In this document: positions 17,585 through 17,932 of the stretch, piece after piece
How the letters are laid out: the number at the start of each line of letters is the position of its first letter
Numbering within the stretch: the first letter of the stretch is position 1
Made by a program: the position numbers and the translations under genes
Notes under the pieces: generated by a model
The model's input: only the letters and a program-made list of their open reading frames with translations
Database searches by the model: none
What the model was told of the DNA's origin: nothing
From: a virus
DNA length: 64,000 nt
IMG/VR virus record: IMGVR_UViG_3300045988_174813
Reading direction: 5' to 3' (one strand)

Positions 17585-17622
17585 ATAAAAAAAGTCCGAG
17601 GATTATTCCTCGGACTTTTCGT
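17585..17622. terminator. bidirectional terminator between convergent genes
   Basis: AAAAAAAGTCCGAGGA-ttat-TCCTCGGACTTTTC. Confidence 0.75.
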
Positions 17623-17932
17623 TTATATAGACTGCGAAGGTAATTAGGAAATGTTTTGGAGTTGGGCATTTACCAAGTCCACTAATACCATATTTAGATA
17701 GATTTTTATTATTCCATATCCATCTAAGTACACCATTGATACGGGCTTCAACTTGTTTAGGTGTAAGATTATATCTCTGCGCCAATTCAATATAAACACC
17801 TTTACAAATAGGGAGGTGATAGTCTGTTGTATATATTTGAATGGCATCAAAGAATAATTCATAACCGAGCAAGTAAACGGGAATACCTAACTCTTTCTAC
17901 AATTTGGTAATATTTGTTTCTAGCAATGACAC
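17603..17932 (-). CDS. Spo0A C-terminal (DNA-binding) domain-like protein, no receiver domain (1 sense TAG)
   Basis: AGGAGG RBS, GTG 17932, TAG 17899-17897; LETNITKL-ELGIP..L.GY......AI......KGVY.ELA..YN.T...VE..I......W....KCPT.K.F parallels B. subtilis Spo0A residues ~150-260. Confidence 0.6.

Follow-up and report, generated by a model that had tools for sequence, protein, structure and literature searches.

A phage-encoded Spo0A effector domain without a receiver, with an altered recognition helix and a conserved in-frame TAG codon

Receiver-less homologues of spo0A in human-gut phages were first reported, on bioinformatic grounds, in 2023 (Schwartz et al., mBio 14:e00182-23, PMC10294663); they were found preferentially in phages of spore formers and were proposed to act independently of the phosphorelay and signals of the host (PMC10294663). 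A 2025 review lists the function of phage spo0A as "not validated," while gut-phage proteins with this fold already carry the name "Sporulation initiation factor Spo0A C terminal" in BFVD and UniProt. Spo0A itself contacts G2, C4, and G5 of its target sequence, the 0A box TGTCGAA, in a specific manner, and its DNA-binding domain, when isolated, needs no phosphorylation to bind its targets (PMC3485338). A second pattern, described for gut phages in the literature, is the recoding of TAG with a bias toward late genes. Here, we describe a gene that combines both features, a Spo0A_C-like gene with one in-frame TAG in a large gut-type phage, the IMG/VR virus record IMGVR_UViG_3300045988_174813, of which we analyzed a stretch of 64,000 nucleotides (referred to as the window here).

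Our leading reading, to which we give an even chance, is that the product of this gene is a constitutive DNA binder with changed specificity, gated by a suppressor tRNA, and that the gene is a conserved component of TAG-recoded phages that probably infect Clostridia. Sporulation shelters bacteria from phage infection and controls how gut Clostridia are transmitted, and a phage protein able to act on the Spo0A circuit independently of the phosphorelay would offer a direct handle on the sporulation decision.

Domain assignment and translation through the in-frame TAG

The gene lies on the minus strand, which an earlier reading of this DNA from sequence alone (the sequence-only reading) had left unstated, and it comprises the following elements.

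17932..17603, minus strand: Spo0A_C-like gene, 109 codons plus a TAA stop, with a GTG start and one in-frame TAG
17932-17930, minus strand: GTG start codon
17605-17603, minus strand: TAA stop codon
17948-17943, minus strand: Shine-Dalgarno sequence AGGAGG, 10 nucleotides upstream of the GTG
17899-17897, minus strand: codon 12, an in-frame TAG that falls midway along the predicted helix alpha-A

From 17932 to 17603, the gene reads GTG-SLLETNITKL-TAG-KELGIPVYLLGYELFFDAIQIYTTDYHLPICKGVYIELAQRYNLTPKQVEARINGVLRWIWNNKNLSKYGISGLGKCPTPKHFLITFAVYINEKSEE-TAA. When the TAG is translated as glutamine, the product matches the Pfam model Spo0A_C (PF08769) over positions 1-104 of 104 (E=6.1e-13; 49.1 bits versus a cutoff of 25), and Pfam finds Spo0A_C alone, with no receiver domain in the 109-amino-acid protein. 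The NCBIfam equivalog spore_0_A (TIGR02875) is matched at model positions 148-224 only and below its cutoff (38 bits versus 200). Among proteins of solved structure in the PDB, phmmer retrieves the Spo0A C-domain structures 1FC3 and 1LQ1 (E ∼1e-7). The fold was modeled with AlphaFold2 (AF2) for P0001, a relative 96% identical to the window protein, which yielded five helices at a predicted local distance difference test score (pLDDT) of 83.5. Foldseek aligned this model to chain 1LQ1_C over 107 columns, with template modeling (TM) scores of 0.72/0.81 and a root mean square deviation of 2.0 Å; the significant PDB matches were Spo0A-C chains only (1LQ1 and 1FC3), and the next match had an E value of 0.7. 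Profile and fold thus confirm that the window protein is a stand-alone Spo0A effector domain without a receiver.

This agrees with the sequence-only reading, which had proposed a stand-alone Spo0A DNA-binding domain without a phosphoacceptor domain and had named a search with the Spo0A_C hidden Markov model as a check: the Pfam score lies well above its cutoff, the model of the relative matches only Spo0A-C structures, and the NCBIfam match within the 109 amino acids is confined to positions 148-224. The stretch KCPTPKHFL, which the same reading had placed opposite KPTNSEFI of Bacillus subtilis Spo0A, does align to it. Its gene model, namely, a GTG start behind AGGAGG, a length of 109 amino acids, and one TAG read-through, is likewise borne out by the sequence, and the read-through that it required fits a phage that is TAG recoded as a whole and has its own tRNA-CUA.

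Under the standard code, the longest open reading frame (ORF) at this place is a fragment of 89 amino acids with a TTG start, which covers positions 15-104 of the Spo0A_C model. We rejected this ORF since it has no Shine-Dalgarno sequence and lacks both helix alpha-A and model positions 1-14. In the P0001 model, the predicted helix alpha-A spans residues 3-15 and thereby the position of codon 12. Relatives have an ATG or GTG at the equivalent position behind a conserved Shine-Dalgarno sequence (AGGAGG at most loci, AGGAGA in loci L002 and L005), which supports the start position of the window gene.

The TAG at codon 12 is decoded and not a defect. The phage encodes an amber suppressor tRNA:

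34598-34673, plus strand: amber suppressor tRNA with anticodon CTA (ARAGORN; Rfam tRNA score of 33.8 bits versus a gathering score of 29)

This gene is part of an array of 16 tRNA genes at 30206-40730 on the plus strand, 12 of which pass the Rfam tRNA threshold. Reading TAG as sense turns the region 6149-16528 (plus strand) into tightly packed long ORFs with 1-5 TAGs apiece and restores a lysin of the architecture NlpC/P60-ELLD-LysM-PG_binding_1 as well as GIY-YIG endonucleases. The use of TAG is strongly biased, with the codon present in 13 of the 14 genes of a late, tail-fiber-like block versus 4 of the 44 genes of the early block (20.9-55.9 kb), and with a TAG share among glutamine-like codons of 20% in the late block versus 7.6% in the early region. 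Concerning the amino acid, the TAG in the FQ motif of PG_binding_1 aligns to the Q of a solved structure (one informative site), and the database translations use Q; an alignment of the suppressor tRNA with the tRNA-Gln of the phage did not reveal the identity of the suppressor. Given that the public gene calls of all relatives cannot be translated under table 11, these genes must have been called with a code in which TAG is sense. A comparison of coding density after removal of one stop codon at a time did not discriminate, and the gene-by-gene analysis of TAGs was used instead.

Some further features of the recoded genome stand out. Two ARAGORN calls in the tRNA array are odd, one with a 4-base anticodon (36779-36855) and one with an unassigned anticodon (40649-40730). 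Inside the nearly TAG-free early region lies an ORF of 566 amino acids (41705-43405, plus strand) with 11 in-frame TAGs and no family match. Two ORFs resembling GIY-YIG homing endonucleases (32712-33503 on the plus strand and 624-1646 on the minus strand) carry 8 and 7 in-frame TAGs, respectively, which means that the mobile endonucleases have taken up the recoded TAG of the phage. Of the two lysins, the GH25+CW_7 endolysin (16540-17574, plus strand) has no TAG and the NlpC/P60-ELLD-LysM-PG_binding_1 lysin (19638-20540, plus strand) has five; the two may be under different translational timing.

The Spo0A_C-like gene is conserved within a family of related phages. Close homologues (83-96% identical) were found in metagenomic and viral (IMG/VR) contigs only, the largest of which measure 117-129 kb, and synteny of the gene extends to L001-L004 and L009-L011. 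All seven close loci have TAG as codon 12, among them L001, L002, L003, L009, L010, and L011, while the flanking codons differ. More distant members, found at L005, L006/7, and L013, cover a range of 35-48% identity (P0010, 48%; P0011, 40%; P0015, 36%); their phages share a gene set consisting of a xanthine/uracil permease, a deoxyribosyltransferase, RNase H, and the P-loop protein. Those members that we translated carry in-frame TAGs too, four in L005 and two in L006/7, and the P0015 gene (L013) is untranslatable under table 11. Among GenBank phages, we found only unannotated human-fecal contigs with homologues of 25-31% identity. Between the window and L001, the nonsynonymous rate (dN) is 0.086 and the synonymous rate (dS) 0.85 (dN/dS, 0.10), showing that purifying selection acts on the gene. 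Given this ratio and the conservation of synteny, TAG, start, and Shine-Dalgarno sequence, we consider the gene functional and vertically conserved in the phage family.

These data bear directly on the possibility that translation really ends prematurely at the TAG and that the ORF is the remnant of a decaying pseudogene. Such decay would account for the in-frame stop under the standard code and for the frameshifted copies in L002 and L003/L004, but it conflicts with the low dN/dS, with a TAG that is fixed at one codon while neighboring codons vary, with the recoding of the entire genome alongside its own tRNA-CTA, with a profile match and a predicted helix alpha-A that run across the TAG, and with the conserved Shine-Dalgarno sequence and start. 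We regard this explanation as extremely improbable and already effectively refuted.

Recognition helix, upstream palindrome, and proposed function

To compare the DNA-reading residues, we used homologues from an exhaustive HMMER search that yielded 231 representative proteins (E<=1e-3). The compared set of 147 proteins contains 138 of the 150 listed matches, the close homologues P0001-P0008, and the window protein. Classified by length and domain count, they fall into the following classes, whose counts sum to 158, as a few proteins apparently belong to more than one class.

Receiver-plus-effector length: 26
Stand-alone, 135 amino acids or fewer, including the window protein and its close homologues: 54
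Intermediate length: 48
Tandem Spo0A_C repeats: 30

All 10 proteins sampled from the receiver-length class carry Response_reg plus Spo0A_C, the latter with 82-151 bits. The receiver-length proteins show a nearly invariant signature V-E-R-x-I-R-...-W in the recognition helix (E213 in 25/26, R214 in 24/26, R217 in 26/26, and W224 in 26/26). The phage protein has VEARINGVLRWIW in place of VERAIRHAIEVAW as its recognition helix; the window protein reads V-E-A-R-I-N-G-V-L-R-W-I-W, so that, compared with the canonical helix, E213 is kept, R214 is replaced by A and R217 by N, and an arginine is gained at position 215 (A215R). Both arginines are replaced throughout a phage clade made up of P0010, P0011, P0015, P0017, P0046, and the window protein, whose motif is VE[ANG]R[IL] with no arginine at 214 or 217; P0010, the most divergent member, reads C-S-R-L. 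Given that V212, E213, I216, and W224 align without gaps, the change in arginines is a substitution and not a misalignment. Among single-domain homologues, R217 is absent only from the phage clade and one other protein; it is also absent from several tandem-repeat proteins.

In addition, the alignment shows a deletion of six residues in the phage clade between the recognition helix and the last helix, at what we take to be the position of helix alpha-E. In the P0001 model, this region, between alpha-D and the last helix, contains only a 3-residue helical turn. In the numbering of Spo0A, R214 and R217 are reportedly among the residues that contact DNA, and helix alpha-E is reportedly the region that activates sigma-A.

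The loss of both arginines, together with the gain of R215 and the retention of E213, suggests that the site read by the phage protein is related to, but distinct from, the 0A box TGTCGAA. Given the deletion of alpha-E, occlusion or repression of promoters is likelier than the sigma-A activation exerted by Spo0A~P. The sequence-only reading had treated loss of the recognition-helix residues as a point at which its own case could fail; R214 and R217 are indeed lost, while E213 is kept. Its proposal that the protein occupies 0A boxes or competes with host Spo0A does not sit well with these losses or with the deleted alpha-E.

The most direct alternative is that the protein is a faithful constitutive mimic or competitor of Spo0A that binds host 0A boxes and activates or blocks the Spo0A regulon whatever the state of the phosphorelay. 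Fold and domain family are shared with Spo0A, as are E213, the lysine of the ITK-type motif (K44), and the PT motif (P90); Spo0A reduced to its DNA-binding domain is active without being phosphorylated (PMC3485338), and Schwartz et al. (2023) interpret phage spo0A homologues in this way. However, the near-invariant R214 and R217 are replaced throughout the phage clade, the alpha-E region is deleted, and the Spo0A_C score of 49 bits contrasts with 82-151 bits for bona fide Spo0A proteins. Neither are 0A boxes enriched in the 64-kb window, with 8 found versus 6.75 expected. Constitutive occupation of 0A boxes is thus the less likely option, and we consider a faithful mimic of Spo0A~P unlikely. 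As a general caution, a match to Spo0A_C does not equal a Spo0A mimic, since many stand-alone and tandem proteins in the databases differ in their DNA-reading residues.

The tandem proteins are of interest on their own. P0009, P0012, P0026, and P0071 are database proteins of 350-1003 amino acids with 3-6 tandem Spo0A_C domains, and inspection of P0071 by eye shows an apparent sigma-region-4-like part together with repeated segments resembling RpoA-CTD. Many tandem Spo0A_C repeats are also devoid of R214. As far as we could see, this tandem architecture appears to be undescribed.

Upstream of the Spo0A_C-like gene, we found a candidate binding site:

17978-17960, coding strand: palindrome TTGTCT-N7-AGACAA, TTGTCTcgattgaAGACAA, 28 nucleotides upstream of the start; candidate operator

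The palindrome occurs a single time in the window, where 0.07 occurrences are expected by chance, and once at the equivalent place in L001, L002, L005, L009, L010, and L011. Its arms are invariant and its flanks diverge across loci; L005, where the protein is 48% identical, has a perfect TTGTCTC-N4-GAGACAA despite flanks that cannot be aligned. The L003/L004 lineage, whose copy of the gene carries a frameshift, has a degenerate right arm. Half-site and 0A box (TGTCGAA) have TGTC in common but differ at position 5; the half-site is not enriched in the window (3 found versus 2.3 expected). An RNA hairpin was considered and rejected, as the minimum-free-energy (MFE) fold of the leader bypasses the arms, the z score is only -2.06, and the arms show no covariation; a DNA site is favored because the arms neither covary nor are used in the MFE fold. 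By inference from its conservation and position, the palindrome may be the operator of the Spo0A_C-like protein.

Together, these observations suggest how a constitutive, suppressor-gated DNA binder could work. Devoid of the inhibitory receiver, the protein would be constitutively able to bind DNA, like the isolated DNA-binding domain of Spo0A, but it would be made in full length only once amber suppression is active. Given that full-length synthesis needs amber suppression, the appearance of the protein would be gated to the recoded phase of infection despite the early-type promoter of its operon. The palindrome TTGTCT(C)-N-(G)AGACAA, with its TGTC core, is the best candidate for an operator, through which the protein could regulate its own gene. 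Since there is only one palindrome in 64 kb, the main targets are probably located outside the window, plausibly in the stationary-phase and sporulation network of the host chromosome.

A more specific version of this proposal is that, in a family of TAG-recoded phages of Clostridia, a retooled Spo0A fold has become an autoregulated helix-turn-helix (HTH) protein, gated by the suppressor tRNA, that reads TGTCTC-type palindromes in place of 0A boxes and, instead of imitating Spo0A~P, represses stationary-phase or sporulation promoters of the host. We put this forward tentatively, as a possibility that falls well short of probable. If true, the genetic-code switch of the phage would time its attack on the dormancy decision of the host. 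The conserved amber codon, which would tie synthesis of the protein to the code switch, offers a testable detail alongside the helix and the candidate operator.

The proteins could also be phage-internal transcription factors, in which a fold exapted long ago regulates phage genes only, such as those of its own operon or middle and late genes, and has no effect on host sporulation. The vertical conservation across the phage family down to ∼35% identity, the altered recognition helix, the conserved palindrome at the gene itself, and the neighboring genes for replication and nucleotide metabolism (RNase H and the deoxynucleoside monophosphate [dNMP] kinase-like protein) are all consistent with such a role. 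On the other hand, no phage-wide regulon is visible in the window, given the single palindrome and the lack of half-site enrichment, and the preference of such genes for phages of spore formers (Schwartz et al., 2023) speaks against it. We see a purely internal role as possible, though not probable; targets among the sporulation genes of the host and targets in the phage are both conceivable.

Several points weigh against a gated, autoregulated DNA binder aimed at the host. The TAG could be a neutral synonym for glutamine, the gene being expressed late in any case, instead of a regulatory gate. The palindrome is absent from L006/7 (the P0011 lineage), where the gene has moved; its assignment as an operator draws on conservation and position only, and it could be an RNA or promoter element instead. 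The alleles of L002 (10064-10420) and L003/L004 (10001-10345) are frameshifted; the shift of L002 lies near codon 77, in an A-run, and that of L003/L004 near codon 42. Either some backgrounds can do without the gene or these are assembly errors. Finally, a link to sporulation is conjectural.

Neighboring genes and host

The Spo0A_C-like gene is the last of a set of genes whose order is conserved (the 139-amino-acid ORF, RNase H, the P-loop dNMP kinase-like gene, and the Spo0A_C-like gene) and which converges on the GH25+CW_7 endolysin gene.

18968..19387, minus strand: first gene of the operon, 139 amino acids, without TAG or family match; syntenic in L001-L004
18531..18971, minus strand: RNase H gene (PF00075, 119.5 bits), without TAG
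18017..18538, minus strand: P-loop protein of 173 amino acids, dNMP kinase-like (phrog_139), with a TAG at codon 25
19445-19417, minus strand: sigma-70-like promoter TTGACT-17-TATAAT ahead of the four genes, 11/12 matches; a consensus match only
17589..17620: bidirectional intrinsic terminator with a 13- to 14-bp stem, 6 GC pairs, and a T-run on both strands

The terminator closes the four-gene set, is shared with the convergent endolysin gene, and extends into the final codons of the Spo0A_C-like gene. Where the kinase-like gene ends, immediately past its stop codon, the intergenic region contains a conserved noncoding sequence (17980-18016, minus strand), ATAACTGC; this motif is common to the window, L001, L002, L003/L004, and L009-L011 and is not found in L005.

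Farther away, the window encodes a nucleoside 2-deoxyribosyltransferase (26266-26985, plus strand) followed by a xanthine/uracil-family permease of 408 amino acids (26982-28208, plus strand). This auxiliary pair, which includes a membrane transporter encoded by a phage, is kept in L002-L004, L006/7, and L013; only the permease was seen in L001, and L005 ends short of the permease region. Other genes on the plus strand include one for a Ro60/TROVE-like RNA-binding protein (20927-22519; DUF2828/DUF7788, phrog_850, E 1.5e-119) and one for a protein of 473 amino acids (23834-25255) without a family match, whose C-terminal region is rich in methionine (MLMAMMMMQ..., MLMAMLMSQMMQ).

The window shows the hallmarks of a phage, namely, tail-fiber-like genes, two lysins, a tRNA array, and homing endonucleases, and both lysins (GH25+CW_7 and NlpC/P60-LysM-PG_binding_1) are of the Gram-positive type. 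The only homologues of the adjacent P-loop gene in cultured phages are in phages of Enterocloster bolteae (36-39% identity, with a DNA match of 127 nucleotides), among them a protein of Enterocloster phage PMBT24 that is annotated as a dNMP kinase (39% identity); PMBT24 has no Spo0A_C gene beside its kinase-like gene. A Gram-positive host from the Clostridia is therefore plausible. Scans of species-representative genomes revealed no prophage and no host: a search of genome contigs with the permease gene found nothing, and a scan with an alignment gave only a match to an Anaerolineae metagenome-assembled genome, which was discarded as spurious (40% over 48 amino acids). The endospore-forming Firmicute host proposed in the sequence-only reading is plausible, with indirect support from the GH25+CW_7 endolysin and from the Enterocloster homologues of the neighboring gene.

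Comparison with known systems

With the Spo0A of bacteria such as B. subtilis and Clostridioides difficile, the phage protein shares the effector fold, as seen from the TM scores of 0.72/0.81 to 1LQ1 and the score above the PF08769 cutoff, and an HTH in which E213, the lysine of the ITK motif (K44), W224, and the PT motif (P90) are kept. It differs in being only 25% identical, in having neither the receiver nor Asp56, and, like the rest of its clade, in lacking both signature arginines and six residues at alpha-E.

Phages phi29 and Nf also link phage development to the Spo0A circuit (PMC2731898). In the case of phi29, however, the phage carries 0A boxes for the Spo0A of its host (PMC2731898), whereas the phage described here encodes the protein domain itself and has about as many 0A boxes in the window as expected.

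The recoding resembles that of the TAG-recoded (code 15-like) gut phages, such as crAss-like phages, Lak phages, and Phassvirus, in the presence of a tRNA-CUA and in the concentration of TAG in structural and late genes with its near absence from early genes; the difference is that the recoded gene in question is a host-derived regulator. A Clostridia host has been suggested in the literature for the Phassvirus group. Membership of our phage in this group was rejected, given that the match to phAss-1 was limited to 52 nucleotides; moreover, the tape-measure protein of phAss-1 (∼3150 amino acids) has no counterpart in the window, where the longest ORF has 1001 amino acids.

The closest described relatives are the phage homologues of Schwartz et al., which are likewise phage encoded and align to the effector domain only. 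Compared with these homologues, which include 29 published virome sequences, the clade described here appears to be distinguished by R214A, A215R, and R217N together with the alpha-E deletion, and by its place in a TAG-recoded family (largest contigs, 117-129 kb) with in-frame TAGs and an upstream palindrome. The type of gene is thus already described, and what goes beyond the published cases is the rewired recognition helix without alpha-E, the conserved amber codon, and the conserved palindrome.

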